Source: Candidatus Latescibacterota bacterium
GTDB lineage: Bacteria; Latescibacterota; UBA2968
Direction of reading: 5' to 3'
DNA length: 64,000 nucleotides
NCBI GenBank assembly: GCA_965204745.1
Contig: OZ242010.1
Location: 3,520,001-3,584,000, forward strand
The translations under genes and the position numbers were made by a program. The notes beneath the pieces are model-generated. The model did not search any database, was not told where the DNA came from, and saw only the letters and a program-made list of their open reading frames with translations. Positions 1 to 47,510 of this stretch are shown here, piece by piece; position 1 is the stretch's first letter, and each line of letters begins with the position of its first letter.

Positions 1-1228
1 TTCGACGATCACCATCGCGGCAGGGCAAACCGCGAACGCGTCGGATACGGTGGTCATCACAGCGGTGGACAACACCCGAGACGAACTTAATCGCGACGTG
101 ACCGTGTCCGTTGTATCAGCCAACGCCCAGGGCAGTGTGGTCCTCCCGACTGCAATAACGATCACCGATGATGACCCGCCGCCGAGGCTCTCGATTAGTT
201 CGCCGAGTGCGGTTGAGGGCACTGCCCTGACGTTCACCGTTAGATTGAATGCAGAAAGCGGCAAGGAGGTGACGGTGGCGTATGCAGACGCGGGCACGGG
301 CAGCGCGACTTCGGGGACCGATTACACCGCGCTTACCGCAGGAACCCTGACCTTCGCGGCGGGCACGACCAGCCAGACCATCGCTGTTTCTGTGAGCGAC
401 GACGGGGATGATGAGCCGAACGAGACCGTGATCGTGACGCTGAGCAGTGCGACCAATGCGACCATAAGCACGGCGCAAGGCACAGGAACGATTATCGATG
501 ACGATGGCATGCCTGCGCTGAGTATCGGTTCGCCAAGCGTGATTGAAGGCGTGACCAGCGCGACCCTGACCTTTCAGGTGTACCTACGCCCGGCGCACAC
601 GGCACAGGTGACAGTGGCGTATGCAGACGCGGGCACGGGCACCGCGACTTCGGGGACCGATTACACCGCGCTCACCGCAGGGACCCTGACCTTCGCGGCG
701 AGCGATACCATCCAGACCATCCCTGTTTCTGTGACCGACGACTCGGATGATGAGCCGAACGAGACCGTGATCGTGACGCTGAGCAATGCGACCAATGCGA
801 CCATAAGCACGGCGCAAGGCACAGGGACGATTATCGATGACGAAACACCGAGTGCCAACTTGGATGTGGATGGCGATGGCCGGGTGAGATTGTTCTCGGA
901 TATAATCCTGGTCATTCGATACGTCCTCTTCTTCCGGAACGAGGCCCTCCTCAGAGGGAACGTCATCGAGCCAACTGCCACGCGCACGACCGCTCAAGAA
1001 ATTGAACCCTACCTCGACACGTTGGTCGATCAGAACATTCTCGATGTGGATGGCGATGGCGATGTGAGGCTGTTCTCGGATATAATCCTGATCATTCGAT
1101 ATGTCCTCTTCTTCCGGAACGAGGCCCTCGTCAGAGGGAACGTCATCGAGCCAACTGCCACACGCACGACCGCTCAAGAAATTGAACCCTACATCCGAAG
1201 CCTCTATCCCGACTCCCACTTCCAATGA
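1..1228 (+). CDS. 3' end of a giant surface protein (Calx-beta domains plus two C-terminal dockerin-like repeats); 5' part lies outside the window
   Basis: Open frame from the window edge to TGA at 1228. Calx-beta motifs (VAYADAGTGTATSGTDY, GTLTFAAG, DDEPNETVIVTLS) and two LDVDGDG..SDIIL.IRY..ATRTTAQEIEPY repeats. Near-identical to 46283-47510 (offset 46282). Confidence 0.9.
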   Translation, partial: STITIAAGQTANASDTVVITAVDNTRDELNRDVTVSVVSANAQGSVVLPTAITITDDDPPPRLSISSPSAVEGTALTFTVRLNAESGKEVTVAYADAGTGSATSGTDYTALTAGTLTFAAGTTSQTIAVSVSDDGDDEPNETVIVTLSSATNATISTAQGTGTIIDDDGMPALSIGSPSVIEGVTSATLTFQVYLRPAHTAQVTVAYADAGTGTATSGTDYTALTAGTLTFAASDTIQTIPVSVTDDSDDEPNETVIVTLSNATNATISTAQGTGTIIDDETPSANLDVDGDGRVRLFSDIILVIRYVLFFRNEALLRGNVIEPTATRTTAQEIEPYLDTLVDQNILDVDGDGDVRLFSDIILIIRYVLFFRNEALVRGNVIEPTATRTTAQEIEPYIRSLYPDSHFQ

Positions 1229-29290: not shown

Positions 29291-29607
29291 TCTCAAGCGG
29301 ATAATGTACCGCCTGACATGACTGCCATCGAGTTTGCGTTGACACCACAGGCATTCCCCTATTTTTTAGCGGGGAACTCAAATCAGGGCAGAGCCGGGGT
29401 TGCCTCACCTCTCCCGTCTTACGTCTCACTGAAGGGGGTTGGGCAGGGTGGGAACTGACAACTGACAACTGACTACTGACAATGCGAATTAAGAGTAGAA
29501 AGCGAGTAAGAAGCAAGCCGCAACCCATCATCCAAAGACATGAACGAGTTTCTGTTGACATTTTGTTTTAGAGCGATGAGCGTGGCCGTCCTTTCCGCCT
29601 CCCACCC

Positions 29608-30156: not shown

Positions 30157-30197
30157 CCTCGCTTGACTGACCACCGATCCCATCGTCATTTTACCGC

Positions 30198-30227
30198 TTG
30201 ACAAACAATAGCGTGATTCCCTATATT
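30198..30227 (+). promoter_or_regulatory. Sigma70 promoter of the giant protein gene
   Basis: TTGACA-18 nt-TATATT. Confidence 0.6.
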
Positions 30228-30471
30228 TTTCCCGTTCACCATTGCGATTTTGAACGCGAAGAAAAAGTCGCGCCCGGTCTGTGCGACAACTTTTGCAAAG
30301 GAGGCTTCAGATGATTATCGCCATTTTCAGCCGCTGTTTGAACCTCATTTGGCACTATGTTTTTCCCGCCTGTCCCACCGCGAAAAGTGGCGTTCATATC
30401 GCCCATCCTCGTCTTGGAGTGCGGTTCTATTTTATTGCAAAACAGCCTGTTACGATGATCAGTACAGTGTA

Positions 30472-30490
30472 CCCCCCCCCCCCCCCCCCC
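30472..30490 (+). repeat. C19 homopolymer, candidate phase-variation tract
   Basis: 19 consecutive C, ending 16 nt before ATG 30507, inside an upstream ORF 30311-30505. Confidence 0.9.
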
Positions 30491-30506
30491 TCGGAGGGAG
30501 ACTAAA

Positions 30507-33500
30507 ATGGTGCTCTTTATTTTTCGTTTTCTGTCCCTTCCAACATGGATCGCCATGTTGGTCATGCCCTTGCTGGTCGCCCCTGCGACAGCGCAGACGA
30601 CGCCCTCGAATACCGATACGACCCTCAGCGCGCTGACCTTCACGCCGGGCACCCTGCTTTCCACATTCGCATCCGACAAAACCACCTACGCATTTGCCGT
30701 TCAATCCGGCGCGACAGAGATCACCGTGACCGCGACCCCAACCAATTCGGGGGCCTCTGTCACCATCACGCCGGCCGATGCCAGCGCGACCAGCGGCCAC
30801 CAAGTCGACGTGTCCTCCCCGCCGGTCAGCATTCGCATCGTGGTTTCCCCCGCTATGGGAACGACCACGCTGACCTATACGGTCTCGGCCGGCAATTTTA
30901 CCGACTACGACACCGATGGCGACAACCTCATTGAACTCGGTGCTGGGCAAACCGGGCTGGCGCAACTGCATGCCATGCGCTGGGACCTCAATGGCAATGG
31001 TTTCATAGACGCCAGTGCCACGACCAGCGATACGACCGCCTACAATACCGCCTTCTCCAACCGGCCGCCGGGGATGGGTTGCGAGACCACCTGTATCGGC
31101 TACGAACTGACAGCGAACCTAAACTTTGACGAGAACAGCGACAACGAAATTACCGCAACAGACGCCACCTACTGGAACAGCGGCGCAGGCTGGGCGCCCA
31201 TCGGCAGCAGTGCGACGAAATACACCGGCACCTTCCACGGCAACGACTATACCATCTCCAACCTGTTTATCGACCGCTCTGCCGCCAGCAAAACCGGGCT
31301 GTTCGGCTATGCCGAGGGCAACACGATTCGCAATTTGAGTCTGGTGGACGCCAATGTGACCGGCTATGCTGAAACCGCAGTCCTTGTTGGCGAAGGCAAC
31401 AATCTACAGCTCATGCACATCCGCGTCACCGGACGGGTCAGCGGGTCCGCACGAAGCGCCGGCTTGGTGGGCAGGCTGGCGCACGGCAACTCGACCATTA
31501 CCGCCTGTCGTTCCGAGGTGGACGTCACTGGGTCTAATATAAGCATCGGCGGCTTGGTGGGCTGGAGTAGCGGCACGATAATCGCTAGCTATGCTACCGG
31601 TGCAGTCAGCGGCTATTTTTACGTCGGCGGCCTGGTGGGCTTCCACGGCAACACCGGCAACCCAAAGGCCGTCATACGCGCCAGCTATGCCACCGGCGTA
31701 GTCAGCGGCGACACTGACACCGGTGGCCTGGTCGGTGCCAACTTCTATTCCAGCACGATAACCGGTAGCTATGCCATCGGCCCGGTCAGTGCTAATTCAC
31801 GGGTTGGTGGCTTGGTCGGTCTCAACAGTAATTCATCAATTACCCACAGCTACTACGATAGAACCACCACCAGACGTGGCGACACCGGACGCGGTGCTCC
31901 CCAGACCACCGCCGAGCTCCAAGGCCCCACGGGTTATACCACCGGTAGCATCTATGCCAACTGGAACCTGAACCTGGACGGGCAACCGGGCGGCGATGAT
32001 CCGTGGACCTTTGGCAAGACAGATCAGTATCCGGTGTTGAAGTATGCCGGCATGGACACCACCGCGCAGTATAACTTGCAACCGCCGGGCATTCCGACAA
32101 GTGTGACAGTAACGCAAAAAGCGGACACCTTGGACGTGCGTTGGCGTGCGGCGAGTTATGCGACGGGGTACAAGGTGCAGTGGAAAGCCAGCGATCAGAA
32201 CTACGCCGTCTCGCGTGAGGAGACCGTCACGGGGACGCGCTACAAGATCGCCAACTTGATCGGCGGGACGACCTACACAGTGCGTGTCATTGCCACCAAG
32301 ACCGGTACGCGCGATGGCATGCCCTCAGCAGAGCAGACCGGCGTTCCCGTCTTGCTGGGCAGTCCGACTGTGATGGTGGCGGCGAAGGTGGACACGCTGA
32401 CCGTGACTTGGAATGTGGTGAACGGGGCGACCGGGTATAAGGTGCAGTGGAAATCCGGGTCAGAGACTTATCCCGCCGCCGATGAGGAGTCCGCCACGCG
32501 CGGGCAAGCCACTATCGCTGGCGGGGGCACCACGATCCACAAAATTTCTGGGCTGACCGCAGGGACGACTTACACGATTCGCGTCATCGCCACGAATACC
32601 AGTATTAATGTAGCCGACAGTGCCCCCTCGGAGGAAGTCATGGTGACCTTGGCGACAACCAAACCCACCAATGTGCGCGTGACGCCGGGGCATCTCCAAC
32701 TCATTGTGCGTTGGACCGAGGCAACCGGCGCGACGGGATACAAGATACAGTGGAGGTCCGGACAACAGACCTACAACACATCTGATCGCCAGGAGACGGT
32801 CTCTGGAGGAAGCACCACGACCTACACGATAGAGAACCTGACTTTTGGCACGACCTACACGGTGCGCGTCACTGCTACCCTGGCAGGTGGGGCCGATAGC
32901 ACGCCCTCGGACGAGGTCATGGGCACGCCCCAAGGGATCGATTATGATGGCGATGGCGATGGCCTCATCGACATTGAGACGCTGGCACAACTGCATGCCA
33001 TCCGCTGGGATCTCAACGGCGATGGGGTCGTCGCCGATAATGATACCATGACCTACAACGCCGCCTTTCCCAACCGCGACACCACCAGCAATGTCCGAAT
33101 GGGTTGCCCTTCTGGGACCTGCACCGGCTACGAACTGCTCAACAACCTCGACTTTGACGAGAATGGCGACGGCGAAATCACCTCAGCAGACGCCACCTAC
33201 TGGGACAACGGCGCGGGTTGGCTACCCATCGGCACAGCCGCCGCCAGATACACCGGCGATTTCAAGGGCAACGGCTACACTATCGACAACCTGACCATCA
33301 ACCGACCCGCCGTCGTTGAAGTGGGATTATTCGGCAACGCCGACACCGCCTCCCGCATCGAGTCCGTCGGCGTAACCAACGCCAGTGTTGCGGGAGGCGA
33401 ATATGCCGGCGCTCTGGTCGGCGCCCTGCGCGGCGAAGTCGTCGCCTGCTACTCCACCGGCAACGTTTCGGCGACGACTAGGACCGCCGGTGGACTGGTC

Positions 33501-36500
33501 GGATGGACGCCCAACGCGATTACCTCAAGCTACTCCACCGCATCCGTCAGCGGCCCTGAGCACGTCGGCGGCCTGCTGGGAGCAAGCCAAGGCGGCACCG
33601 TAACGAACTCCTACTCCATCGGCACGGTTATCGGCACCGGCAGTTCTCCACTCGTCGGCGGGTTGATAGGCTCCGGCACGGGCGGCACCGCAAGCTACTG
33701 GGACACCCAAACCAGCGGCTGTACATCCGGCGGCAGCAACGGTTGCACAACCAGCGCCGGCGGTGGCGGCGTTACCGGCCAGACGACCAGCGCGCTCCAA
33801 TCCCCCACCGACTACACCCTCATCTTCTCCACTTGGAATGCCAACCTCGACGGACAAGCCGGCGACGATGATCCGTGGACCTTTGGCGCGGCGGATCAGT
33901 ATCCCGTGTTGAAATATGCCGGCATGGACACCACCGTGCAGTATAACTTGCAACCGCCGGGCATACCGACCAGTGTGACCGTGACGCCAAAAGCGGACAC
34001 CTTGGACGTGCGTTGGACTGCGGCGAGTTATGCGACGGGGTACAAGGTGCAGTGGAAATCCGGCGATCAGAGCTACGCCGCCTCACGTCAGGGGACCGTC
34101 ACGGGGACGCGCTACAAGATCTCCAACTTGATCTCCGGGACGTACACAGTGCGTGTCATTGCCACCAAGACCGGTGCGCCCGATGGCATGCCCTCGGCAG
34201 AGCAGACCAGCGAACCCCTGCTGGTCAGTCCGACTGTGATGGTGGCGGCGAAGGTGGACACGCTGACCGTGACTTGGAACGCCGTGGACGATGCCACCGG
34301 GTATAAGGTGCAGTGGAAATCCGGGTCAGAGACTTATCCCGCCGCCGATGAGCAGTCCGCCACGCGCGGGCAAGCCACCATCGCTGGCGGGGGCACCACG
34401 ATCCACAAAATTTCTGGGCTGACCACAGGGACGACCTACACGATTCGCGTCATCGCCACGAGTACCAATAGCAATGTAGCCGACAGTGCCCCCTCGGAGG
34501 AAGTCATGGGAACCTTGGCGACAACCAGGCCCACCAATGTGCGCGTGACGCCGGGGCCGGTCCAACTCATTGTGACTTGGACCGAGGCAACCGGCGCGAC
34601 GGGATACAAGATACAGTGGAAGTCCGGGCAACAGGCCTACAACACCTCTTCTCGCCAGGAGACGGTCTCTGGAGGCAGCACCACGACCTACACGATAGAG
34701 AACCTGACTTTTGGCACGACCTACACGGTGCGCGTCACTGCTACCCTGTCAGGTGGGGCCGATAGCACGCCCTCGGACGAGGTCATGGGCACGCCCCAAG
34801 GGATCAATTACGACAGCGATGGCGATGGCCTCATCGACATTAAGACGCTGGCGCAACTGCATGCCATCCGCTGGGATCTCAACGGCGATGGGGTCGTCGC
34901 CGATAATGATACCATGAACTACAACGCCGCCTTTCCCGGCCGCGACATCACCAGCAATGGCCGGATGGGTTGCCCTTCCGGAACCTGTACCGGCTACGAA
35001 CTGCTCAACAACCTCGACTTTGACGAGAATGGCGACGACCAAATCACCTCAGCAGACGCCACCTACTGGGACAACGGCGCGGGTTGGCTACCCATCGGCA
35101 CAGACGCCGCCAGATACACCGGCGATTTCAAGGGCAACGGCTACACTATCGACAACCTGACCATCAACCGACCCTCCGTCGTTGAAGTGGGATTATTCGG
35201 CAACGCCGACACCGCCTCCCGCATCGAGTCCGTCGGCGTAACCAACGCCAGTGTTGCGGGAGGCGAATATGCCGGCGCTCTGGTCGGCGCCCTGCGCGGC
35301 ACAGTCGTCGCCTGCTACTCCACCGGCAACGTTTCGGCGACGACTAGGACCGCCGGCGGGCTGGTCGGATGGACGCCCAACGCGATTACCTCAAGCTACT
35401 CCACCGCATCAGTCAGCGGCCCTGAGCACGTCGGCGGACTGCTGGGAGCAAGCCAAGGCGGCACCGTAACGAACTCCTACTCCACCGGCGTGGTTACTCG
35501 CTCCAGCGGAACGCTAACAACCATCGGCGGGTTGATAGGCTCCGGCACGGGCGGCACCGCAAGCTACTGGGACACCCAAACCAGCGGCTGTACATCCGGC
35601 GGCAGCAACGGTTGCACAACCAGCGCCGGCGGTGGCGGCGTTACCGGCCAGACGACCAGCGCGCTCCAATCCCCTACCGGCTACACCCTCATCTTCTCCA
35701 CTTGGAACGCCAACCTCGACGGACAAGCCGGCGACGATGATCCGTGGACCTTTGGCGCGGCGGATCAGTATCCCGTGTTGAAATATGCCGGCATGGACAC
35801 CACCGTGCAGTATAACTTGCAACCGCCGGGCATTCCGACAAGTGTGACAGTAACGCCAAAAGCGGACACCTTGGACGTGCGTTGGACCGCGGCGAGTTAT
35901 GCGACGGGGTACAAGGTGCAGTGGAAAGCCGGCGCGCAGAGCTACGCCGCCTCACGTCAGGGGATCGTCACAGGGACGCGCTACAAGATCCCCAACTTGC
36001 TCGCCGAGACGACCTACACAGTGCGTGTCATTGCCACCAAGACCGGTGCGCCCGATGGCATGCCCTCGGCAGAGCAGACCGGCGTTCCCGCCTTGCTGGG
36101 CAGTCCGGCTGTGGTGGTGGCGGCGAAGGTGGACACGCTGACCGTGACTTGGAATGTGGTGAACGGGGCGACCGGCTACAAAGTGCAGTGGAAATCCGGG
36201 GCAGCGACTTATCCCACCTCCGATCTGGCGTTGGCCACGCACGGGCAAGCCACAATCGCTGGCGGGAGCACCACGATCCACAAAATTTCTGGGCTGACCG
36301 CAGGGACGACTTACACGATTCGCGTCATCGCCACGAGTACCAATATCAATGTAGCCGACAGTGCCCCCTCGGAGGAAGTCATGGGGACCTTGGCGACCAC
36401 CAGGCCCACCAATGTGCGCGTGACGCCGGGGCCGGGCCAACTCATTGTGGCTTGGACCGAGGCAACCGGCGCGACGGGCTACAAGGTGCAGTGGAAGTCC

Positions 36501-39500
36501 GGGCAACAGGCATACAACACATCTGATCGCCAGGCGACGGTCTCTGGAGGAAGCACCACGACCTATACGATAGAGAACCTGACTTTTGGCACGACCTACA
36601 CGGTGCGCGTCACTGCTACCCTGGCAGGTGGGGCCGATAGCACGCCCTCGGACGAGGTCATGGGCACGCCCCAAAGGATCAATTACGACAGGGATGGCGA
36701 TGGCCTCATCGACATTAAGACGCTGGCACAACTGCATGCCATCCGCTGGGATCTCAACGGCGATGGGGTCGTCGCCGATAATGATACCATGAACTACAAC
36801 GCCGCCTTTCCCGACCGCGACACCACCAGCAATGTCCGGATGGGTTGCCCTTCCGGAACCTGCACCGGCTACGAACTGCTCAACAACCTCGACTTTGACG
36901 AGAATGGCGACGGCGAAATCACCTCAGCAGACGCCACCTACTGGAATGCCAACGCGGGTTGGCAACCCCTCGGGACTTACACCGGTACGCTCAAGGGCAA
37001 TAACAAGACGATCTCCAACCTGTATATCAACCGTGGCGGTCAGAATGATGTTGGGCTGTTCCGGGATATCACGGGCACTGTTTCCGGTCTTGGGCTCCGC
37101 AATGTGGATGTCAGAGGCAACCTCGCCGTGGGAGGACTCACCGGCAATCAGCGCGGGGGTGCCATCACGGGTTGTTATGTCACCGGTCGCGTTCGGGGGT
37201 CTGGCAGTTACGGCTTGGGCGGTCTGGTGGGGCATTCTCATACCGGTGCCAACCGCCGCATCAGTGCCAGCTATTCTGTTGCGGCCGTGACGGCCTTAGG
37301 GAGTGGGGGCAATTTCTGGGTCGGTGGTCTGGTGGGGTGGCAGAACGGCGGGACGATTATCGCGTCCTATGCGACGGGTGCGGTCACGGTTACTGGGAGC
37401 GGCACGAAAGGCGGGTTGGTGGGGCGCCTCGAGAGCAGCGGTGAAGTGACGGCCAGCTATGCGACGGGTCAGGTCACCGGTGACGGCACGAAAGGCGGGT
37501 TGGTGGGTAGCACATCTGGCACAGTGACCAATAGCTACTGGGACAGTGACCAGAGCGGCATTGCCGGGGGCAAGAGCACCAGCGATCTGCAAAGCCCGAG
37601 CACCTACGGTGCCACCAACAGCGACACCTACTACAACTGGAACCTAAATGTGGACAGCGATACCAACACGGGCGACGCAGTGGGCAGAGACGATCCGTGG
37701 ACCTTTGGCGCGGCGGATCAGTATCCGGTCTTGAAATATGCCGGCATGGACACCGCCGTGCAGTATAACTTGCAACCGCCGGGCATTCCGACAAGTGTGA
37801 CCGTGACGCCAAAAGCGGACACCTTGGACGTGCGTTGGCGTGCGGCGAGTAATGCGACGGGGTACAAGGTGCAGTGGAAAGCCGGCGATCAGAACTACGC
37901 CGCCTCGCGTGAGGAGACCGTCACGGGGACGCGCTACAAGATCGCCAACTTGATCGCCGGGACGTACACAGTGCGTGTCATTGCCACCAAGACCGGTGCG
38001 CCCGATAGTCGGCCCTCGGCCGAGCAGACCGGCGTTCCCGCCTTGCTGGGCAGTCCGACTGTGATGGTGGCGGCGAAGGCGGACACGCTGACCGTGACTT
38101 GGAATGCAGTGTCCAACGCAACCGGGTATAAGGTGCAGTGGAAATCCGGGTCAGCGACTTATCCCAACGCCGATGAGGAGTCCGCCACGCACGGGCAAGC
38201 CACTATCGCTGGCGGGGGCACCACGATCCACAAAATTTCTGGGCTGACCGCAGGGATGACCTACACGATTCGCGTCATCGCCACGAGTACCAATGTCAAT
38301 ATACCCGACAGTGACCCTTCGGAGGAAGTCATGGTGACTGCGGCGACAAACAAGCCCACCAATGTGCGCGTGACGCCGGGGTCGGGCCAACTCATTGTGC
38401 GTTGGACCGAGGCAACCGGTGCGACGGGATACAAGGTGCAGTGGAAGTCCGGTGGACAAAGCTACAACACATCTGATCGCCAGACGACGGTCTCTGGGAT
38501 GAGCACCACGACCTACACGATAGAGAACCTGACTTTTGGCACGACCTACACGGTGCGCGTCATTGCTACCCTGGCAGGTGGGACCGATAGCACGCCCTCG
38601 GACGAGGTCACGGGCACCATAACGGATATCAGTTACGATAGCGATGGCGATGGCCTCATCGACATTGAGACACTGGCACAACTGCATGCCATCCGCTGGG
38701 ATCTCAACGGCGATGGGATCGTCGCCGATACTGATACCATGAACTACAACGCCGCCTTTCCCGGCCGCGACATCACCAGCAATGGCCGGATGGGTTGCCC
38801 TTCCGGGACATGCATAGGCTACGAACTGCTCAACAACCTCGACTTCGACACCGACGGGAGCGGGAGCGTAACCTCTGCCGACACCTACCCCAACTGGTCG
38901 CCCATCGGAGGCACCTACTCAACCACGTTCAAGGGCAATAACAAGACCATCTCCAACCTGCACATCAACCGTGGCGGTCAGAATGATGTTGGGCTGTTCT
39001 CCCGTGTCAGCGGCAACATTTCCGGTCTGGGGCTGAAAAATGTCAATGTAACAGGCCAAAGACGGGTGGGTGGGTTGGTCGGTAATCAGGTGGGTGGTCG
39101 CATCCTGGGCTGTTTTGTCACGGGTCGCGTTGAGGGTACTCATCACGAGGTGGGCGGTTTAGTGGGTTATTCAACCGGCAATAATACCGTCATCGCGGCC
39201 AGCTATGCCAATGCTGTAGTCTCCGGAGGGCATGTTCGTGTAGCGGTCGGCGGTTTGGTGGGCAACCTAAATGCTACGGTGATAGCGTCCTACGCCATCG
39301 GGCCGGTGAGTGGATTCCGTAGGGTAGGCGGTTTGGTGGGGAGGTTGGGCGTTTCTCCTAGTCCGGTTAGTACCAGCTATGCCACGGGGACAGTCACTGG
39401 GCAACGACATGACTCCAGCCACCTAGGCGGATTGATCGGGTCTGCACAATCCGGAGTGTCCCATAGTTACTGGGATAGGGAAAGTAGCGGTATCTCATCC

Positions 39501-42500
39501 AGTTCTGGCGGCACGAGCCAGACCACCAGCGCGTTGCGGTCGGAAACGGATTACAACGGCATCTACGCCAACTGGAATGTGGATGTCGATGGCAGGCCTG
39601 GCAATGACGCTCCGTGGACCTTTGGCGCGGCGGATCAGTATCCCGTGTTGAAATATGCCGGCATGGACACCACCGCGCAATTTGCAATGCAACCGCCGGG
39701 CATTCCGACAAATGTGACCGTGACGCCCAAAGCGGACACCTTGGACGTGCGTTGGCGTGCGCCGAGTAATGCGACGGGGTACAAGGTGCAGTGGAAATCC
39801 GGCGCGCAGAACTACGATGCCTCGCGTGAGGAGACCGTCACGGGGACGCGCTACAAGATCGCCAACTTGCTCACCGGGACGACTTACACAGTGCGTGTCA
39901 TTGCCACCAAGACCGGTGTCCGCGATGGCCGGCCCTCGGCCGAGCAGACCGGCGTTCCCCTGCTGGGTAGCCCGACGGGTGTGGAGGTGAATGCGAAGGT
40001 GGACACGCTGACCGTGACTTGGAATGCGGTGAACGGGGTGACCGGCTACAAAGTGCAGTGGAAATCCGGGTCAGAGACTTATCCCGCCGCCGATGAGGAG
40101 TCCGCCACGCACGGGCAAGCCACAATCACTGACGGGGGCACCACGACCTACGATATTTCTGGGCTGACCGCAGGGACGACCTACACGATTCGCGTCATCG
40201 CCACGCGTACCAATGTAGCCGACAGTGCCCCCTCGGAGGAAGTGACCGGCGTTCCTCTGCTGGGCAGTCCGACTGTGATGGTGGCGGCGAAGGTGGACAC
40301 GCTGACCGTGACTTGGAATGCGGTGTCCAACGCAACCGGGTATAAGGTGCAGTGGAAATCCGGGGCAGCGACTTATCCCACCTCCGATCTGGCGTTGGCC
40401 ACGCACGGGCAAGCCACTATCGCTGGCGGGAGCACCACGATCCACAAAATTTCTGGGCTGACCACAGGGACGACCTACACGATTCGCGTCATCGCCACGC
40501 GTACCAATGTAGCCGACAGTGCCCCTTCGGACGCAGTCATGGTGACCTTGGCGACCACCAGGCCCACCAATGTGCGCGTGACGCCGGGGCCGGCCCAACT
40601 CATTGTGGCTTGGACCGAGGCAACCGGCGCGACGGGCTACAAGATACAGTGGAAGTCCGGTGGACAAAGCTACAACACATCTGATCGCCAGACGACGGTC
40701 TCTGGGATGAGCACCACGACCTACACGATAGAGAACCTGACTTTTGGCGCGACCTACACGGTGCGCGTCACTGCTACCCTGGCAGGTGGGACCGATAGCA
40801 CGCCCTCGGACGAAGTCATGGGCACGCCCTACGCGATCAATTACGACAGCGATGGCGATGGCCTCATCGACATTAAGACGCTGGCGCAACTGCATGCCAT
40901 CCGCTGGGATCTCAACGGCGATGGGGTCGTCGCCGATAATGATACCATGAACTACAACGCCGCCTTTCCCGACCGCGACACCACCAGCAATGTCCGGATG
41001 GGTTGCCCTTCCGGAACCTGTACCGGCTACGAACTGCTCAACAACCTTGACTTTGACGAGAATGGCGACGGCGAAATCACTTCAGCAGACGCCACCTACT
41101 GGAATGGCAGCACGGGTTGGCAACCCATCGGGACTTACACCGGTACGCTCAAGGGCAACAACAAGACCATCTCCAACCTGTACATCAACCGTGGCGGTCA
41201 GAATGATGTTGGGCTGTTCCGGGATCTCACGGGCACTGTTTCCGGTCTTGGGCTCCGCAATGTGGATGTCAGAGGCAACCTCGCCGTGGGAGGACTCACC
41301 GGCAATCAGAGCGGGGGTGCCATCACGGGTTGTTATGTCACCGGTCGCGTTCGGGGGTCTGGCAGTTACGGCTTGGGCGGTCTGGTGGGGCATTCTCATA
41401 CCGGTGCCAACCGCCGCATCAGTGCCAGCTATTCCGATGCGGATGTAACAGCCTTAGGGAGTGGGGCCAATTTCTGGGTCGGTGGTCTGGTGGGGTGGCA
41501 GAACGGCGGGACGATTATCGCGTCCTATGCGACGGGCGCGGTCACGGTTACTGGGAACGGCACGAAAGGCGGGTTGGTGGGGCGCCTCGAGAGCAGCGGT
41601 GAAGTGACGGCCAGCTATGCGACGGGTCAGGTCACTGGTGACGGCACGAAAGGCGGGTTGGTGGGCAGCACGGCTGGCACAGTGACCAATAGCTACTGGG
41701 ACAGCGACCGGAGCGGCATTGCCGGGGGCAAGAGCACCAGCGATCTCCAGAGCCAGACCACCTACGGTGCCACCAATAGCGACACCTACTACAACTGGAA
41801 CCTAAATGTGGACAGCGATACCAACACGGGCGACGCAGTGGGCAACGATGATCCGTGGACCTTTGGCGCGGCGGATCAGTATCCCGTGTTGAAATATGCC
41901 GGCATGGATACCACCGCGCAGTATAACTTGCAACCGCCGGGCAGGCCGACCAGTGTGACCGTGACGGTGCAAATGGACACTTTGGATGTGCGTTGGCGCG
42001 CGGCGAGTTATGCGACGGGGTACAAGGTACAGTGGAAATCCGGCGCGCAGAACTACGACGCCTCGCGTGAGGAGACCGTCACGGGGACGCGCTACAAGAT
42101 CCCCAACTTGATCGGCGGGACGACCTACACAGTGCGTGTTATTGCCACCAAGACCGGTGCGCCCGATGGCCGGCCCTCGGCCGAGCAGACCGGCGTTCCC
42201 CTGCTGGGTAGCCCGACGGGTGTGGAGGTGAATGCGAAGGTGGACACGCTGACCGTGACCTGGAATGCGGTGAACGGGGCGACCGGCTACAAAGTGCAGT
42301 GGAAATCCGGGGCACAGACTTATCCCGCCGCCGATGAGGAGTCCGCCACGCACGGGCAAGCCACAATCACTGACGGGGGCACCACGACCTACAAAATTTC
42401 TGGGCTGACCACAGGGACGACCTACGCGATTCGCGTCATCGCCACGCGTACCAATGTAGCCGACAGTGCCCCTTCGGAGGAAGTGATCACCATTCTCATG

Positions 42501-45500
42501 CTGGGTAGCCCAACGGGTGTGGAGGTGAGTGCGAAGGTGGACACGTTGACCGTGACCTGGAATGCGGTGCCCCTCGCAACCGGGTATAAGGTGCAGTGGA
42601 AATCGGGGTCAGAGACTTATCCCAACGCCGATGTGGCGTCCGCCACGCGCGGGCAAGCCACTATCTCAGGCGGGAGCACCACGACCTACAAAATCTCCAA
42701 TGTGACCGCAGGGACGACCTACACGATTCAAGTCATCGCCACGCACACCACAACGGCCGGCAACAGTGCCCCTTCGGAGGAAGTCATGGTGACCTCGGCG
42801 ACCACCAGGCCCACCAATGTGCGCGTGACGCCGGGGCCGGGCCAACTCCTTGTGGCTTGGACCGAGGCAACCGGCGCGACGGGCTACAAGGTGCAGTGGA
42901 AGTCCGGTGGACAAAGCTACAACACATCTGATCGCCAGACGACGGTCTCTGGGATGAGCACCACGACCTACACGATAGAGAACCTGACTTTTGGCGCGAC
43001 CTACACGGTGCGCGTCACTGCTACCCTGGCAGGTGGGACCGATAGCGATCCCTCGGACGAGGTCACGGGCACGCCCTACGCGATCAATTACGACAGCGAT
43101 GGCGATGGCCTCATCGACATTAAGACGCTGGCACAACTGCATGCCATCCGCTGGGATCTCAACGGCGATGGGATCGTCGCCGATAATGATACCATGAACT
43201 ACAACGCCGCCTTTCCCAGCCGCGACATCACCAGCAACGTCCGGATGGGTTGTCCTTCCGGAACCTGTACCGGCTACGAACTGCTCAACAACCTCAACTT
43301 TGACGAGAATGGCGACGGCGAAATCACCTCAGCAGACGCCACCTACTGGAATGCCAACGCGGGTTGGCAACCCATCGGGACTTACACCGGTACGCTCAAG
43401 GGCAATAACAAGACCATCTCCAACCTGTACATCAACCGTGGCGGTCAGAATGATGTTGGGCTGTTCGTGGATCTCACGGGCACTGTTTCCGGTCTTGGGC
43501 TCCGCAATGTGGATGTCAGAGGCAACCTCGGCGTGGGAGGACTCACCGGCAATCAGAGCGGGGGTGCCATCACGGGTTGTTATGTCACCGGTCGCGTTCG
43601 GGGGTCTGGCAGTTTCGGCTTGGGCGGTCTGGTGGGGCATTCTCATACCGGTGCCAACCGCCGCATCAGTGCCAGCTATTCCGTTGCGGCTGTGACGGCC
43701 TTAGGGAGTGGGGGCAATTTCTGGGTCGGTGGTCTGGTGGGGTGGCAGAACGGCGGGACGATTATCGCGTCCTATGCGACGGGTGCTGTCACGGTTACTG
43801 GGAGCGGCACAAAAGGCGGGTTGGTGGGGCGCCTCGAGAGCAGCGGTGAAGTGACGGCCAGCTATGCGACGGGTCAGGTCACTGGGAACGGCACGAAAGG
43901 CGGGTTGGTGGGTAGCACATCTGGCACAGTGACCAATAGCTACTGGGACAGTGACCGGAGCGGCATTGCCGGGGGCAAGAGCACCAGCGATCTCCAGAGC
44001 CAGACCACCTACGGTGCCACCAATAGCGACACCTACTACAACTGGAACCTAAATGTGGACAGCGATACCAACACGGGCGACGCAGTGGGCAAAGACGATC
44101 CGTGGACCTTTGGCGCGGCGGATCAGTATCCGGTCTTGAAGTATGCCGGCATGGATACCACCGTGCAGTATAACTTGCAACCGCCGGGCATTCCGACCAG
44201 TGTGACCGTGACGCCAAAAGCGGACACCTTGGATGTGCGTTGGCGTGCGCCGAGTAATGCGACGGGGTACAAGGTGCAGTGGAAATCCGGCGATCAGAAC
44301 TACGACGCCTCGCGTGAGGAGACCGTCACGGGGACGCGCTACAAGATCTCCAACTTGCTCGCCGAGACGACCTACACAGTGCGTGTCATTGCCACCAAGA
44401 CCGGTGTGCCCGATAGTTGGCCCTCGGCAGAGCAGACCGGCGTTCTCGCCTTGCTGGGCAGTCCGACTGTGATGGTGGCGGCGAAGGTGGACACGCTGAC
44501 CGTGACATGGAATGCGGTGAACGGGGCGACCGGCTACAAAGTGCAGTGGAAATCCGGGGCAGCGACTTATCCCACCTCCGATCTGGCGTTGGCCACGCAC
44601 GGGCAAGCCACCATCGCTGGCGGGGGCACCGCGACCTACGATATTTCTGGGCTGACCGCAGGGACGACCTACACGATTCGCGTCATCGCCACGAGTACCA
44701 ATATCAATGTAGCCGACAGCACCCCCTCGGAGGAAGTCATGGTGACCTTGGCGACCACCAGGCCCACCAATGTGCGCGTGACGCCGGGGCCGGTCCAACT
44801 CATTGTGGCTTGGACCGAGGCAACCGGCGCGACGGGCTACAAGATACAGTGGAAGTCCGGTGGACAAAGCTACAACACCTCTTCTCGCCAGGAGACGGTC
44901 TCTGGAGGAAGCACCACGACCTACACGATAGAGAACCTGACGATAGGGACGCCCTACACAGTGCGCGTCACTGCTACCCTGGCAGGTGGGACCGATAGCA
45001 CGCCCTCGGACGAGGTCATGGGCACGCCCCCGGGGATCAATTACGACAGCGATGGCGATGGCCTCATCGACATTAAGACGCTGGCACAACTGCATGCCAT
45101 CCGCTGGGATCTCAACGGCGATGGGGTCGTCGCCGATAGTGATACCATGAACTACAACGCCGCCTTTCCCAACCGAGACACCACCAGCAATGTCCGGATG
45201 GGTTGCCCTTCCGGAACCTGTACCGGCTACGAACTGCTCAACAACCTCGACTTTGACGAGAATGGCGACGGCGAAATCACCTCAGCAGACGCCACCTACT
45301 GGAATGCCAACGCGGGTTGGCAACCCCTCGGGACTTACACCGGTACGCTCAAGGGCAATAACAAGACGATCTCCAACCTGTATATCAACCGTGGCGGTCA
45401 GAATGATGTTGGGCTGTTCCGGGATATCACGGGCACTGTTTCCGGTCTTGGGCTCCGCAATGTGGATGTCAGAGGCAACCTCGCCGTGGGAGGACTCACC

Positions 45501-47510
45501 GGCAATCAGCGCGGGGGTGCCATCACGGGTTGTTATGTCACCGGTCGCGTTCGGGGGTCTGGCAGTTTCGGCTTGGGCGGTCTGGTGGGGCATTCTCATA
45601 CCGGTGCCAACCGCCGCATCAGTGCCAGCTATTCCGTTGCGGCTGTGACAGCCTTAGGGAGTGGGGCCAATTTCTGGGTCGGTGGTCTGGTGGGGTGGCA
45701 GAACGGCGGGACGATTATCGCGTCCTATGCGACGGGTGCGGTCACGGTTACTGGGAGCGGCACGAAAGGCGGGTTGGTGGGGCGCCTCGAGAGCAGCGGT
45801 GAAGTGACGGCCAGTTATGCGACGGGTCAGGTCACGGGTGACGGCACGAAAGGCGGGTTGGTGGGTAGCACATCTGGGACAGTGACCAATAGCTACTGGG
45901 ACAGTGACCGGAGCGGCATTGCCGGGGGCAAGACCACCCGCGATCTCCAGAGCCAGACCACCTACGGTGCCACCAACAGCGACACCTACTACAACTGGAA
46001 CCTAAATGTGGACAGCGATACCAACACGGGCGACGCAGTGGGCAAAGACGATCCGTGGACCTTTGGCGCGGCGGATCAGTATCCGGTCTTGAAGTATGCC
46101 GGCATGGACACCACCGTGCAATTTCAACTCCAACCCGCGGTAGTGACGTTGACCCTGACGCCCTCGTCGATCTCGGAAAGCGGCGGGATGAGTACCGTGA
46201 CCGCGACGCTGACACGGTCGTGGAGCACGGCGACGACGATCACGGTGCGCCCTGTGACCGGTGCTTACACGGTGGGGATGGATTCGACGATCACCATCGC
46301 GGCAGGGCAAACCGCGAACGCGTCGGATACGGTGGTCATCACAGCGGTGGACAATACCCGAGACGAGCTTAATCGCGACGTGACTGTGTCCGTTGTGTCA
46401 GACAACACCCAGGGCAGTGTGGTCCGCCCGATCAAGATAACGATCACCGATGATGACCCGCAACCGAGGCTCTCGATCAGTTCGCCGAGTGCGGTTGAGG
46501 GCACTGCCCTGACGTTCACCGTTAGATTGAATGCGGTGAGCGGCAAGGAGGTGACGGTGGCGTATGCAGACGCGGGCACGGGCACCGCGACTTCGGGGAC
46601 GGATTACTCCACACTTACCGCAGGGACCCTGACCTTTGCGGCGGGCACGACCAGCCAGACTATCGCTGTTTCTGTGAGCGACGACGGGGATGATGAGCCG
46701 AACGAGACCGTGATCGTGACGCTGAGCAGTGCGACCAATGCGACCATAAGCACGGCGCAAGGCACAGGGACGATTATCGATGACGATGGCATGCCTGCGC
46801 TGAGTATCGGTTCGCCAAGCGTGATTGAAGGCGCGACCAGCGCGACCCTGACCTTTCAGGTGTACCTACGCCCGGCGCACACGGCACAGGTGACGGTGGC
46901 GTATGCAGACGCGGGCACGGGCACCGCGACTTCGGGGACCGATTACACCGCGCTCGCCGCAGGGACCCTGACCTTCGCGGTAGGCGATACCATCCAGACC
47001 ATCCCTGTTTCTGTGAGCGACGACGGGGATGATGAGCAGAACGAGACCGTGATCGTCGAGTTGAGCAGTGCGACCAATGCGACCATAAGCACGGCGCAAG
47101 GCACAGGGACGATTATCGATGACGAAAGCCCGAGTGCCAACTTGGATGTGGATGGCGATGGCCGGGTGAGATTGTTCTCGGATATAATCCTGGTCATTCG
47201 ATATGTCCTCTTCTTCCGGAACGAGGCCCTCCTCAGAGGGAACGTCATCGAGCCAACTGCCACGCGCACGACCGCTCAAGAAATTGAACCCTACCTCGAC
47301 ACGTTGGTCAATCAGAACATTCTCGATGTGGATGGCGATGGCGATGTGAGGCTGTTCTCGGATATAATTCTGATCATTCGATATGTCCTCTTCTTCCGGA
47401 ACGAGGCCCTCGTCAGAGGGAACGTCATCGAGCAAAATGCTACGCGCACGACCGCTCAAGAAATTGAACCCTACATTCGAAGCCTCTATCCCGACTCCCA
47501 CTTCCAATGA
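30507..47510 (+). CDS. Giant secreted adhesin-like protein (5667 aa): signal peptide, cadherin-like domain, 8 GLUG-type modules, about 23 FN3 domains, Calx-beta domains, 2 dockerin-like repeats
   Basis: ATA-Q signal cleavage site; GGLVG/ASYATG repeats; FN3 W...ATGYKVQWK...L..GTTYTVRV.A; Calx-beta and C-terminal repeats as in 1-1228. Confidence 0.92.
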   Translation: MVLFIFRFLSLPTWIAMLVMPLLVAPATAQTTPSNTDTTLSALTFTPGTLLSTFASDKTTYAFAVQSGATEITVTATPTNSGASVTITPADASATSGHQVDVSSPPVSIRIVVSPAMGTTTLTYTVSAGNFTDYDTDGDNLIELGAGQTGLAQLHAMRWDLNGNGFIDASATTSDTTAYNTAFSNRPPGMGCETTCIGYELTANLNFDENSDNEITATDATYWNSGAGWAPIGSSATKYTGTFHGNDYTISNLFIDRSAASKTGLFGYAEGNTIRNLSLVDANVTGYAETAVLVGEGNNLQLMHIRVTGRVSGSARSAGLVGRLAHGNSTITACRSEVDVTGSNISIGGLVGWSSGTIIASYATGAVSGYFYVGGLVGFHGNTGNPKAVIRASYATGVVSGDTDTGGLVGANFYSSTITGSYAIGPVSANSRVGGLVGLNSNSSITHSYYDRTTTRRGDTGRGAPQTTAELQGPTGYTTGSIYANWNLNLDGQPGGDDPWTFGKTDQYPVLKYAGMDTTAQYNLQPPGIPTSVTVTQKADTLDVRWRAASYATGYKVQWKASDQNYAVSREETVTGTRYKIANLIGGTTYTVRVIATKTGTRDGMPSAEQTGVPVLLGSPTVMVAAKVDTLTVTWNVVNGATGYKVQWKSGSETYPAADEESATRGQATIAGGGTTIHKISGLTAGTTYTIRVIATNTSINVADSAPSEEVMVTLATTKPTNVRVTPGHLQLIVRWTEATGATGYKIQWRSGQQTYNTSDRQETVSGGSTTTYTIENLTFGTTYTVRVTATLAGGADSTPSDEVMGTPQGIDYDGDGDGLIDIETLAQLHAIRWDLNGDGVVADNDTMTYNAAFPNRDTTSNVRMGCPSGTCTGYELLNNLDFDENGDGEITSADATYWDNGAGWLPIGTAAARYTGDFKGNGYTIDNLTINRPAVVEVGLFGNADTASRIESVGVTNASVAGGEYAGALVGALRGEVVACYSTGNVSATTRTAGGLVGWTPNAITSSYSTASVSGPEHVGGLLGASQGGTVTNSYSIGTVIGTGSSPLVGGLIGSGTGGTASYWDTQTSGCTSGGSNGCTTSAGGGGVTGQTTSALQSPTDYTLIFSTWNANLDGQAGDDDPWTFGAADQYPVLKYAGMDTTVQYNLQPPGIPTSVTVTPKADTLDVRWTAASYATGYKVQWKSGDQSYAASRQGTVTGTRYKISNLISGTYTVRVIATKTGAPDGMPSAEQTSEPLLVSPTVMVAAKVDTLTVTWNAVDDATGYKVQWKSGSETYPAADEQSATRGQATIAGGGTTIHKISGLTTGTTYTIRVIATSTNSNVADSAPSEEVMGTLATTRPTNVRVTPGPVQLIVTWTEATGATGYKIQWKSGQQAYNTSSRQETVSGGSTTTYTIENLTFGTTYTVRVTATLSGGADSTPSDEVMGTPQGINYDSDGDGLIDIKTLAQLHAIRWDLNGDGVVADNDTMNYNAAFPGRDITSNGRMGCPSGTCTGYELLNNLDFDENGDDQITSADATYWDNGAGWLPIGTDAARYTGDFKGNGYTIDNLTINRPSVVEVGLFGNADTASRIESVGVTNASVAGGEYAGALVGALRGTVVACYSTGNVSATTRTAGGLVGWTPNAITSSYSTASVSGPEHVGGLLGASQGGTVTNSYSTGVVTRSSGTLTTIGGLIGSGTGGTASYWDTQTSGCTSGGSNGCTTSAGGGGVTGQTTSALQSPTGYTLIFSTWNANLDGQAGDDDPWTFGAADQYPVLKYAGMDTTVQYNLQPPGIPTSVTVTPKADTLDVRWTAASYATGYKVQWKAGAQSYAASRQGIVTGTRYKIPNLLAETTYTVRVIATKTGAPDGMPSAEQTGVPALLGSPAVVVAAKVDTLTVTWNVVNGATGYKVQWKSGAATYPTSDLALATHGQATIAGGSTTIHKISGLTAGTTYTIRVIATSTNINVADSAPSEEVMGTLATTRPTNVRVTPGPGQLIVAWTEATGATGYKVQWKSGQQAYNTSDRQATVSGGSTTTYTIENLTFGTTYTVRVTATLAGGADSTPSDEVMGTPQRINYDRDGDGLIDIKTLAQLHAIRWDLNGDGVVADNDTMNYNAAFPDRDTTSNVRMGCPSGTCTGYELLNNLDFDENGDGEITSADATYWNANAGWQPLGTYTGTLKGNNKTISNLYINRGGQNDVGLFRDITGTVSGLGLRNVDVRGNLAVGGLTGNQRGGAITGCYVTGRVRGSGSYGLGGLVGHSHTGANRRISASYSVAAVTALGSGGNFWVGGLVGWQNGGTIIASYATGAVTVTGSGTKGGLVGRLESSGEVTASYATGQVTGDGTKGGLVGSTSGTVTNSYWDSDQSGIAGGKSTSDLQSPSTYGATNSDTYYNWNLNVDSDTNTGDAVGRDDPWTFGAADQYPVLKYAGMDTAVQYNLQPPGIPTSVTVTPKADTLDVRWRAASNATGYKVQWKAGDQNYAASREETVTGTRYKIANLIAGTYTVRVIATKTGAPDSRPSAEQTGVPALLGSPTVMVAAKADTLTVTWNAVSNATGYKVQWKSGSATYPNADEESATHGQATIAGGGTTIHKISGLTAGMTYTIRVIATSTNVNIPDSDPSEEVMVTAATNKPTNVRVTPGSGQLIVRWTEATGATGYKVQWKSGGQSYNTSDRQTTVSGMSTTTYTIENLTFGTTYTVRVIATLAGGTDSTPSDEVTGTITDISYDSDGDGLIDIETLAQLHAIRWDLNGDGIVADTDTMNYNAAFPGRDITSNGRMGCPSGTCIGYELLNNLDFDTDGSGSVTSADTYPNWSPIGGTYSTTFKGNNKTISNLHINRGGQNDVGLFSRVSGNISGLGLKNVNVTGQRRVGGLVGNQVGGRILGCFVTGRVEGTHHEVGGLVGYSTGNNTVIAASYANAVVSGGHVRVAVGGLVGNLNATVIASYAIGPVSGFRRVGGLVGRLGVSPSPVSTSYATGTVTGQRHDSSHLGGLIGSAQSGVSHSYWDRESSGISSSSGGTSQTTSALRSETDYNGIYANWNVDVDGRPGNDAPWTFGAADQYPVLKYAGMDTTAQFAMQPPGIPTNVTVTPKADTLDVRWRAPSNATGYKVQWKSGAQNYDASREETVTGTRYKIANLLTGTTYTVRVIATKTGVRDGRPSAEQTGVPLLGSPTGVEVNAKVDTLTVTWNAVNGVTGYKVQWKSGSETYPAADEESATHGQATITDGGTTTYDISGLTAGTTYTIRVIATRTNVADSAPSEEVTGVPLLGSPTVMVAAKVDTLTVTWNAVSNATGYKVQWKSGAATYPTSDLALATHGQATIAGGSTTIHKISGLTTGTTYTIRVIATRTNVADSAPSDAVMVTLATTRPTNVRVTPGPAQLIVAWTEATGATGYKIQWKSGGQSYNTSDRQTTVSGMSTTTYTIENLTFGATYTVRVTATLAGGTDSTPSDEVMGTPYAINYDSDGDGLIDIKTLAQLHAIRWDLNGDGVVADNDTMNYNAAFPDRDTTSNVRMGCPSGTCTGYELLNNLDFDENGDGEITSADATYWNGSTGWQPIGTYTGTLKGNNKTISNLYINRGGQNDVGLFRDLTGTVSGLGLRNVDVRGNLAVGGLTGNQSGGAITGCYVTGRVRGSGSYGLGGLVGHSHTGANRRISASYSDADVTALGSGANFWVGGLVGWQNGGTIIASYATGAVTVTGNGTKGGLVGRLESSGEVTASYATGQVTGDGTKGGLVGSTAGTVTNSYWDSDRSGIAGGKSTSDLQSQTTYGATNSDTYYNWNLNVDSDTNTGDAVGNDDPWTFGAADQYPVLKYAGMDTTAQYNLQPPGRPTSVTVTVQMDTLDVRWRAASYATGYKVQWKSGAQNYDASREETVTGTRYKIPNLIGGTTYTVRVIATKTGAPDGRPSAEQTGVPLLGSPTGVEVNAKVDTLTVTWNAVNGATGYKVQWKSGAQTYPAADEESATHGQATITDGGTTTYKISGLTTGTTYAIRVIATRTNVADSAPSEEVITILMLGSPTGVEVSAKVDTLTVTWNAVPLATGYKVQWKSGSETYPNADVASATRGQATISGGSTTTYKISNVTAGTTYTIQVIATHTTTAGNSAPSEEVMVTSATTRPTNVRVTPGPGQLLVAWTEATGATGYKVQWKSGGQSYNTSDRQTTVSGMSTTTYTIENLTFGATYTVRVTATLAGGTDSDPSDEVTGTPYAINYDSDGDGLIDIKTLAQLHAIRWDLNGDGIVADNDTMNYNAAFPSRDITSNVRMGCPSGTCTGYELLNNLNFDENGDGEITSADATYWNANAGWQPIGTYTGTLKGNNKTISNLYINRGGQNDVGLFVDLTGTVSGLGLRNVDVRGNLGVGGLTGNQSGGAITGCYVTGRVRGSGSFGLGGLVGHSHTGANRRISASYSVAAVTALGSGGNFWVGGLVGWQNGGTIIASYATGAVTVTGSGTKGGLVGRLESSGEVTASYATGQVTGNGTKGGLVGSTSGTVTNSYWDSDRSGIAGGKSTSDLQSQTTYGATNSDTYYNWNLNVDSDTNTGDAVGKDDPWTFGAADQYPVLKYAGMDTTVQYNLQPPGIPTSVTVTPKADTLDVRWRAPSNATGYKVQWKSGDQNYDASREETVTGTRYKISNLLAETTYTVRVIATKTGVPDSWPSAEQTGVLALLGSPTVMVAAKVDTLTVTWNAVNGATGYKVQWKSGAATYPTSDLALATHGQATIAGGGTATYDISGLTAGTTYTIRVIATSTNINVADSTPSEEVMVTLATTRPTNVRVTPGPVQLIVAWTEATGATGYKIQWKSGGQSYNTSSRQETVSGGSTTTYTIENLTIGTPYTVRVTATLAGGTDSTPSDEVMGTPPGINYDSDGDGLIDIKTLAQLHAIRWDLNGDGVVADSDTMNYNAAFPNRDTTSNVRMGCPSGTCTGYELLNNLDFDENGDGEITSADATYWNANAGWQPLGTYTGTLKGNNKTISNLYINRGGQNDVGLFRDITGTVSGLGLRNVDVRGNLAVGGLTGNQRGGAITGCYVTGRVRGSGSFGLGGLVGHSHTGANRRISASYSVAAVTALGSGANFWVGGLVGWQNGGTIIASYATGAVTVTGSGTKGGLVGRLESSGEVTASYATGQVTGDGTKGGLVGSTSGTVTNSYWDSDRSGIAGGKTTRDLQSQTTYGATNSDTYYNWNLNVDSDTNTGDAVGKDDPWTFGAADQYPVLKYAGMDTTVQFQLQPAVVTLTLTPSSISESGGMSTVTATLTRSWSTATTITVRPVTGAYTVGMDSTITIAAGQTANASDTVVITAVDNTRDELNRDVTVSVVSDNTQGSVVRPIKITITDDDPQPRLSISSPSAVEGTALTFTVRLNAVSGKEVTVAYADAGTGTATSGTDYSTLTAGTLTFAAGTTSQTIAVSVSDDGDDEPNETVIVTLSSATNATISTAQGTGTIIDDDGMPALSIGSPSVIEGATSATLTFQVYLRPAHTAQVTVAYADAGTGTATSGTDYTALAAGTLTFAVGDTIQTIPVSVSDDGDDEQNETVIVELSSATNATISTAQGTGTIIDDESPSANLDVDGDGRVRLFSDIILVIRYVLFFRNEALLRGNVIEPTATRTTAQEIEPYLDTLVNQNILDVDGDGDVRLFSDIILIIRYVLFFRNEALVRGNVIEQNATRTTAQEIEPYIRSLYPDSHFQ

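Follow-up and report, generated by a model that had tools for sequence, protein, structure and literature searches.

A candidate contingency cassette with a poly-C tract at the end of a leader reading frame ahead of genes for giant surface proteins in a Latescibacterota bacterium

To our knowledge, phase variation by simple repeats is known almost solely from cultured pathogens and commensals of animals. In Neisseria, opa (CTCTT) and pilC (poly-G) carry their repeats in the signal-peptide coding region of the sole open reading frame (ORF), which is either ON or OFF. Among proline-rich leaders, mgtP is known for its proline and EF-P dependence. In Streptococcus gallolyticus, a GCAGA repeat lies in a leader peptide of the single locus pil1, where the ribosome destabilises an intrinsic terminator, a form of attenuation (Danne et al. 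2014, PMC3894217). In Haemophilus influenzae licA, the number of CAAT repeats aligns initiation codons with the ORF, and more than one frame is productive (PMC2212159). Translational coupling by termination-reinitiation takes place at ATGA or TGATG overlaps (PMC6728339), the opa family is mentioned in PMC3745409, and a review names mgtP of mgtCBR among upstream ORFs (uORFs; PMC12360218). The present analysis concerns a 64,000-nucleotide (nt) stretch of a Candidatus Latescibacterota bacterium, called the window throughout (assembly GCA_965204745.1, contig OZ242010.1, positions 3,520,001 to 3,584,000), which lies inside a single 5.48-Mb contig of 56.5% G+C (genome G000). Here, a run of 19 cytosines (C19) ends a short leader ORF directly ahead of the gene for a giant secreted repeat protein. 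Our preferred reading, held with moderate confidence, is that the locus belongs to a family-wide contingency cassette, a dual-start, slippage-driven frame selector that heads genes for giant surface proteins.

The leader-adhesin transcript of the window would start from a sigma-70-like promoter, TTGACA-18-TATATT (30198..30227; this and all features below are on the + strand), which has 11 of 12 matches and whose CTTGACAA element is conserved across the alignment of paralogs; a promoter scan around the locus gave 2 sites against 0.5 expected. A Shine-Dalgarno (SD) sequence, AAGGAGG (30298..30304), precedes the leader ORF (30311..30505), which runs from the ATG at 30311 through 64 codons to a TAA and encodes MIIAIFSRCLNL...FYFIAKQPVTMISTVY-PPPPPP-SEGD. 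The C19 tract (30472..30490), the presumed slippage site, is read as proline codons in the leader frame and is the sole homopolymer of at least 10 nt in the window (10 overlapping C10 matches, 0.24 expected). It is followed by a G-rich SD, GGAGGGAG (30493..30500), and by a coupling junction (30503..30509) in which the leader TAA (30503-30505) is separated by one base from the ATG at 30507 of the giant gene (30507..47510). According to the ORF list and domain matches, the product of 5667 amino acids (aa) has a signal-peptide-like N-terminus, a Cadherin-like domain, and GLUG, fn3 and Calx-beta domains. All of these landmarks, from the promoter and ribosome-binding site to the 64-aa ORF across C19, its TAA and the two start codons, are present as a sequence-only reading of this DNA had described them.

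The frame outcomes predicted by that reading also held when the length of the tract was altered by script. With C19, the result is the 64-aa leader, whose stop ends 1 nt before the giant-gene ATG; with C18, an in-frame leader-adhesin fusion of the ..PPRRETK-MVLF type; and with C20, an out-of-frame overlap of 130 nt into the giant gene that ends at 30636. The part of the giant gene readable out of frame from the leader with C17 or C20 (30510..30636) corresponds to a listed ORF ending at 30636. No terminator-like site was found in 29900-30700, and no Rfam covariance model matched at E <= 1 in 29600-30800. Between the promoter and the leader SD lies a hairpin, GAACGCGA-AGAAAAAG-TCGCGCC (30250-30275), a site at which two leader classes carry differing stems (GCGCGG/CCGCGC versus GCAGGC/GCCTGC); RNAalifold on a mixed-class alignment of the 5' untranslated region between promoter and leader SD returned no consensus structure. 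A sigma-70 or sigma-54 promoter within the conserved 3' end of the leader (TTGCAA...TAGGAT/TACAGT) was rejected by eye, as the spacings are unfit.

The sequence-only reading treated this locus as a single case. It is instead one of ~37 cassettes in the genome, 24 with long tracts and 13 decayed. The C/G runs of the genome are bimodal in length: relative to counts expected from composition under a model of independent, identically distributed letters, runs of 8-11 nt are depleted (19 versus ~319) and runs of 12-25 nt are enriched (30 versus ~2). Across the range of 7-11 nt, runs are far rarer than composition predicts (at length 8, 9 observed versus 230 expected), which suggests selection against unintended slippery runs. 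Among the 30 long runs, 24 share the cassette flanks, and the poly-C always lies on the sense strand. Alignment of 600 nt upstream of these genes revealed a common leader region of ~270 nt with a constant order: a CTTGACAA-N17/18-TAnnnT promoter, a class-specific hairpin, the SD AAGGAGG and the leader start (ATG in 23 copies, GTG in 1), then a leader frame whose 49-53 codons run into the tract, a spacer of 14-19 nt that includes a G-rich SD, and finally the start codon (ATG) of the large ORF. An SD-like motif stands 6-9 nt 5' of the leader start in all 24 tract-bearing copies of this genome, as well as in the copies of two related genomes (G018 and G016), and a G-rich motif is kept at the position of the second SD in all sequence types.

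The main ORFs behind these 24 tracts sum to 61,537 codons, or 3.4% of the genome. Most of them (22/24) encode 838-6292 aa with signal-peptide-like N-termini, which begin MMPRYAHLLALV..., MTSRSAHLL... or MVLFIFRFLSL.... Two cassettes (genome 276197 and 4491927) head shortened main ORFs of 59 and 128 aa, probably pseudogenes or frameshifted copies. The window itself holds the 3' end of a second family member, a 3285-aa paralog (1..1228, + strand), for which the sequence-only reading had suggested a search for poly-C at the 5' end. Such a tract exists: C15 at genome 3511340-3511354, 8.6 kb upstream of the window, within a cassette of its own (genome 3511179-3511370) that is in the fused frame as assembled.

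The leader ORF is coding, as judged from its pattern of conservation in 34 copies from three species (24 from this genome, 9 from G018 and 1 from G016). In none of the 34 does the leader frame contain a stop, whereas stops number 95 and 46 in the other two frames, of which the first is open in no leader and the second in 2. The sequence ahead of the tract measures 92, 145, 149, 152, 155, 161 or 182 nt, which is 2 mod 3 in 33 of 34 copies. Indels of 3, 6, 12, 33 and 57 nt leave the reading frame undisturbed, and the one deviating copy has lost 4 nt immediately next to the tract. The ratio of nonsynonymous to synonymous substitution rates (dN/dS; means by NG86) is low over the first 13 codons (0.20 within the genome, 0.23 between species), rises in the middle (0.80 and 1.18) and is 0.18 over the last 15 codons within the genome. 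The conserved N-terminus reads M-(I/L)-T-A-I-F-(S/R)-R-C-(L/S)-N-L, the middle is free to vary, and the poly-Pro run comprises 4-8 or more codons. Constraint thus appears to act on being translated and on the N-terminal motif, and less clearly on the residues just before the poly-Pro.

The tract is variable in length: 12-25 nt in this genome, 16-31 nt in G018 and C17 in the G016 copy. Of 10 pairs of close paralogs, whose 100-nt flanks are at least 90% identical on both sides, 9 differ in tract length by 1-10 nt. Among leaders of the '...SEGD*' type, there are 6 Pro here, 5 in the database homologue P0029 and 4 in P0030. Such differences between copies resemble the pattern of a fast-evolving repeat. 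A 181-nt contig from another sample (run X3) that spans 30454-30638 shows 8 gaps and 2 other letters, as a tract shorter by about 8 nt would; it is absent from the indel table and was given no weight. Loss of mismatch repair as a cause was rejected, given that MutS is present, in a search for MutS alone.

Since the phase of the leader depends on the tract, the assembled copies fall into different states: "coupled" (TGA within ATGA, or a stop ending 1 nt before the adhesin ATG), "fused", and "overlap" (a leader frame ending 70-119 nt inside the adhesin gene). The 24 long-tract loci are fused in 10 cases, coupled in 9 and overlapping in 5, and the 11 loci of the relatives (10 from G018, 1 from G016) are fused in 3, coupled in 3 and overlapping in 4, with one whose stop ends 10 nt before the ATG. 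Addition or removal of one C shifts the frame relation in 24/24 loci of this genome. One-base changes yield all three outcomes in 20 of them and two coupled frames and one fused in the other 4, and every locus has at least one frame ending within 6 nt of the ATG. Moreover, the G-rich SD and ATG behind the tract are kept though the peptide that the fused frame encodes there differs by family (REGDK, GRSDK, RRETK or REESD).

Based on these findings, the cassette may work as follows. A sigma-70-type promoter would give a transcript that begins with a translated leader ORF ending in poly-C, i.e., poly-Pro. Slipped-strand changes of the tract at replication would reset the leader frame relative to the adhesin start, independently for each gene. 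In the coupled frame (ATGA overlap or TAA-N-ATG), terminating ribosomes would open the pairing between SD and poly-C and could re-initiate. In the fused frame, they would produce a precursor with an N-terminal extension of ~60-70 aa ahead of the signal peptide, which would still be exported and which permanent fusions, described below, suggest to be functional. In the third frame, leader ribosomes would read 70-185 nt out of frame across the start; this state most likely lowers or silences expression, with the start occluded and a message of 3-19 kb left untranslated and open to Rho. We infer the assignment of ON and OFF to the states, the role of SD sequestration and a stalling effect of poly-Pro. 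In its full form, in which a three-position translational selector (re-initiation, extended precursor or occlusion) stands before each of ~37 giant adhesin genes and an uncultured sponge symbiont shuffles its display cell by cell, the proposal is a tentative one. As part of it, the length of the poly-Pro run could act as a second, graded control that depends on EF-P or Rho. One homologue each of EF-P, Rho and MutS scored above the Pfam cut-off.

Several observations weigh against this reading. A junction of the coupled type is common: among 2200 control starts from the same genome, ATGA is found at 35%, and at 46% an off-frame stop ends no more than 6 nt away, and we therefore rejected the junction as independent evidence of design. 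The three-state model of the sequence-only reading is plausible but only partly upheld: the anatomy is real and conserved, the leader is coding and all three states occur among the assembled copies of three species, whereas the coupled-type stop is unremarkable on its own. The 10/9/5 spread of states would also be expected from random lengths. The leader copies are paralogs with gene conversion or shared ancestry, and counts across them are non-independent. Over the last 15 leader codons, dN/dS between species is 0.81, and when the leader is taken as a whole, variation does not peak at the third codon position, which has 52 extra states against 65 at the first and 58 at the second. We infer switching within a population, for which the assembled contigs give no direct evidence of length heterogeneity, and the assembled tract lengths, hence the state of each locus, may be a population consensus or carry homopolymer error. 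A G-rich SD beside a C run folds almost unavoidably in silico. Additionally, long C runs can cause both the ribosome (with tRNA-Pro) and RNA polymerase to slip, and the states may accordingly be leaky or blurred.

Foremost among the alternatives is a classic ON/OFF switch within one ORF, as in opa or pilC of Neisseria, where the leader ATG is the true start, the leader extends the signal peptide at its N-terminus, only the fused frame is ON and the internal SD and ATG are unused; we regard it as unlikely. The 13 further cassettes of the genome, recovered by DNA and peptide searches, bear on both this and our preferred reading. Their tracts are short (C4-C6), interrupted (C4TC4, C4TC3) or deleted, forms into which contingency loci usually decay, and their frames are fused in 7, coupled in 4, overlapping in 1 and ended by an early stop in 1. 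The downstream ORF is intact (~1520 to ~6900 aa) in the 12 decayed copies measured, a set outside which the early-stop copy (genome 1080099) lies. In two copies (genome 4580245 and 183254), the tract, SD and ATG have been deleted, so that the leader continues in frame straight into the signal peptide's hydrophobic core and no start other than the leader ATG is left for the intact ORFs of 1760 and 6938 aa; the same two fusion types recur in diverged sequence in P0020 and P0027 from other assemblies. Because such permanent leader-adhesin fusions exist, the fused precursor is probably functional; the sequence-only reading had the fused state as a mere added leader, and these copies suggest a working precursor instead. 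That giant ORFs stay intact without an internal start speaks for the ON/OFF switch, as do the prevalence of the fused state (7/13 locked and 10/24 long-tract copies) and the purifying selection on the leader N-terminus, as for part of a protein.

The same switch would, however, leave a good deal unaccounted for. A Met codon follows a G-rich SD-like motif exactly at the canonical signal-peptide start in 24/24 loci of this genome and 11/11 of the relatives, and the fused-frame peptide at that site is not conserved. Locked copies with intact ORFs of 1540-3765 aa in the coupled (4) and overlap (1) frames would have to count as dead. Evolution in the middle of the leader is neutral (dN/dS 0.8-1.2). 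No extended-signal-peptide (ESPR) or other Pfam family was matched by the leader at E <= 0.001 or by any of 14 leaders; hmmscan of these 14 at E <= 10 returned just two unrelated weak families and no ESPR, with HMMER filters that drop most weak matches. The distribution of frames points to the overlap frame as the disfavoured one, in small numbers of copies some of which share ancestry.

A second alternative holds that the tract acts physically and independently of frame, as poly-C RNA that clamps the SD or loads Rho, or as a poly-G roadblock in the template, so that its length tunes expression gradually; this we consider improbable. Both uORF-dependent Rho attenuation and stochastic Rho-based phase variation are established, according to a review (PMC12360218), and this genome has a Rho homologue. 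Tract lengths of 12-31 nt also far exceed what a frame switch needs. The pairing of the C run with the giant-gene SD, which the sequence-only reading had raised, is predicted by ViennaRNA, with a probability of ~1.0 for five G residues of GGAGGGAG. At a threshold of P >= 0.8, 14 of the 24 loci have three or more positions between tract and ATG with predicted pairing to the tract and 4 more have exactly 2, which brings SD-tract pairing at 2 or more positions to 18/24. In 23/24 loci, three or more G residues of the SD region have a predicted partner of one kind or another. These models would equally fit an SD that leader ribosomes need to open. In the MTSR subfamily, by contrast, the SD GGGAGG is predicted to pair not with the tract but with CCUCCC in codons 2-4 of its own gene. 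A physical role also leaves unexplained why the leader frame is open in 34/34 copies, why its indels are multiples of 3, why its N-terminus is conserved and why the tract keeps its position at the 3' end of the leader ORF.

Finally, an assembly or sequencing artefact, or neutral junk, is hardly credible: long homopolymers are error-prone in long-read assemblies and the records are metagenome-assembled chromosomes, but one and the same cassette position accounts for 24 tracts here and for 11 more in two genomes that were assembled independently. Runs of 8-11 nt are far below expectation, and leaders with 2-10 consecutive Pro are likewise encoded in short-read assemblies of other origin.

Beyond this genome, the long-tract cassette is present in two other species of the genus. 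Leader DNA was detected in 3 of 30 relatives, with 14 hits in G018, 2 in G016 and one weak hit in G010 that is merely another C run. A profile of the leader peptide found matches in 3 of 20 other genomes of the genus (15 in G018, one strong in G016, and one weak with an internal stop in G006) and none in the other 17. Searched against 1.84 billion representative proteins, the profile gave 26 hits at E <= 0.001, 23 of them from residue 1; these 23 comprise 15 short ORFs (48-122 aa) and 8 long proteins (306-2446 aa), which are fused forms. A word-based search yielded 20 short homologues, 16 of which end in the coupled frame as read from their C-termini. This count says nothing on the frequency of states because gene callers would rarely call the overlapping form. 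Parts of the stretch also occur in sequencing runs whose labels are sponge metagenome and marine metagenome; the material used came from four runs, as contigs in pieces of 80-350 nt. A metagenome scan with a pattern built on the motifs of this genome gave 0 loci, and a looser pattern gave more than 120 stretches, with 0 cassette members among the 80 examined. Those 80 (L046-L125) are an abundant unrelated repeat, GGGGGTACAATGTA-C7-20-TGTCCCCATAGTTCCGACGCCACTG, with a variable C run and an 11-nt motif shared by chance.

Some features of the locus and genome stand apart from the cassette. The giant gene contains long, near-identical internal repeats with a period of ~2.1 kb, each spanning a GLUG region and three fn3 domains, and at the end of its protein stand two Calx-beta domains and a duplicated dockerin-like segment, the latter without a Pfam match at E <= 0.001. 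On the 5' side of the promoter, window positions 29700-30190 hold high-copy repeats common to many paralog loci, among them the palindrome CCCCCTTCCTCTTAGGAAGGGGG (around 30119-30141); other copies carry GGATTA-rich repeats. In run X1, the summed contig depth of this region peaks at 48,000, as compared with ~400-700 at the gene start. Six long C/G runs of the genome, all outside the window, have flanks unrelated to the cassette and may be further contingency loci of other kinds. These are a C21 (732472-732492), a C18 (1578675-1578692) followed by (GGTCAGT)n-like repeats, a C19 (1833000-1833018) that lies ~45 nt 5' of an ATG opening a signal-peptide-like ORF, two C13 runs (3250395-3250407 and 4295687-4295699) within a near-identical repeat pair, and a C16 (4540232-4540247).

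If our reading is correct, an uncultured phylum, Latescibacterota, holds a large repertoire of contingency genes in a lineage also found in sponge and marine metagenomes. Stochastic variation of its giant adhesins could then serve a symbiont against, for instance, phages, phagocytosis or recognition by the host, with a cell-by-cell choice that includes the form of the precursor over a gene set of ~180 kb (the 24 tract-bearing genes). The novel aspect would be that a single base of slippage selects among re-initiation, fusion and overlap. There are also consequences for annotation: the database hits show that gene callers are not consistent about such loci, some being annotated as a single fused gene and others as a giant gene preceded by a small ORF, and long-read assemblies fix arbitrary states.

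In the literature searched, we found no paper linking Latescibacterota or sponge symbionts with homopolymer phase variation or contingency loci, and no layout in which a repeat ends a separate leader ORF directly ahead of a second start. Individual elements nevertheless have counterparts. As with opa and pilC of Neisseria, the cassette equips a multigene family of surface adhesins with a slippery 5' repeat in each copy, so that independent switching would give combinatorial surface variation; it differs in having a second SD and ATG 3' of the repeat and, on the 5' side, a conserved leader that is an ORF in its own right with ~50 codons. As proposed here, more than one of the three frames gives a product, as in licA, whose starts all lie 5' of a tetranucleotide repeat in a single lipopolysaccharide (LPS) locus, with no leader ORF that terminates at a start. 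The fused frame and the permanent fusions place an extension directly ahead of the classical signal peptide of a very large protein and could in that respect recall ESPR proteins (PF13018); the extension here, with 55-70 aa, a neutrally evolving middle and poly-Pro, is unlike ESPR.

The cassette shares consecutive Pro codons just before the regulated gene, and the presence of EF-P, with proline-rich leaders and arrest peptides; here, in contrast, the number of Pro codons is itself variable, and a sensing role is not evidenced. As in termination-reinitiation, the stop of the leader in the coupled frame shares bases with the start (ATGA) or lies right beside it (TAA-N-ATG, TGA-N-ATG), but this occurs in one of three frames, chosen by a presumably hypermutable tract. 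The nearest precedent is pil1, which has in common a simple repeat in a translated leader ORF 5' of an adhesin locus, with expression set by ribosome travel, as proposed here for the cassette. In the cassette, the repeat is instead a C12-C31 homopolymer read as poly-Pro, there is no terminator-like site between leader and gene, and at the head of ~37 genes the leader frame stops at the start codon, continues through it in frame or crosses it out of frame.

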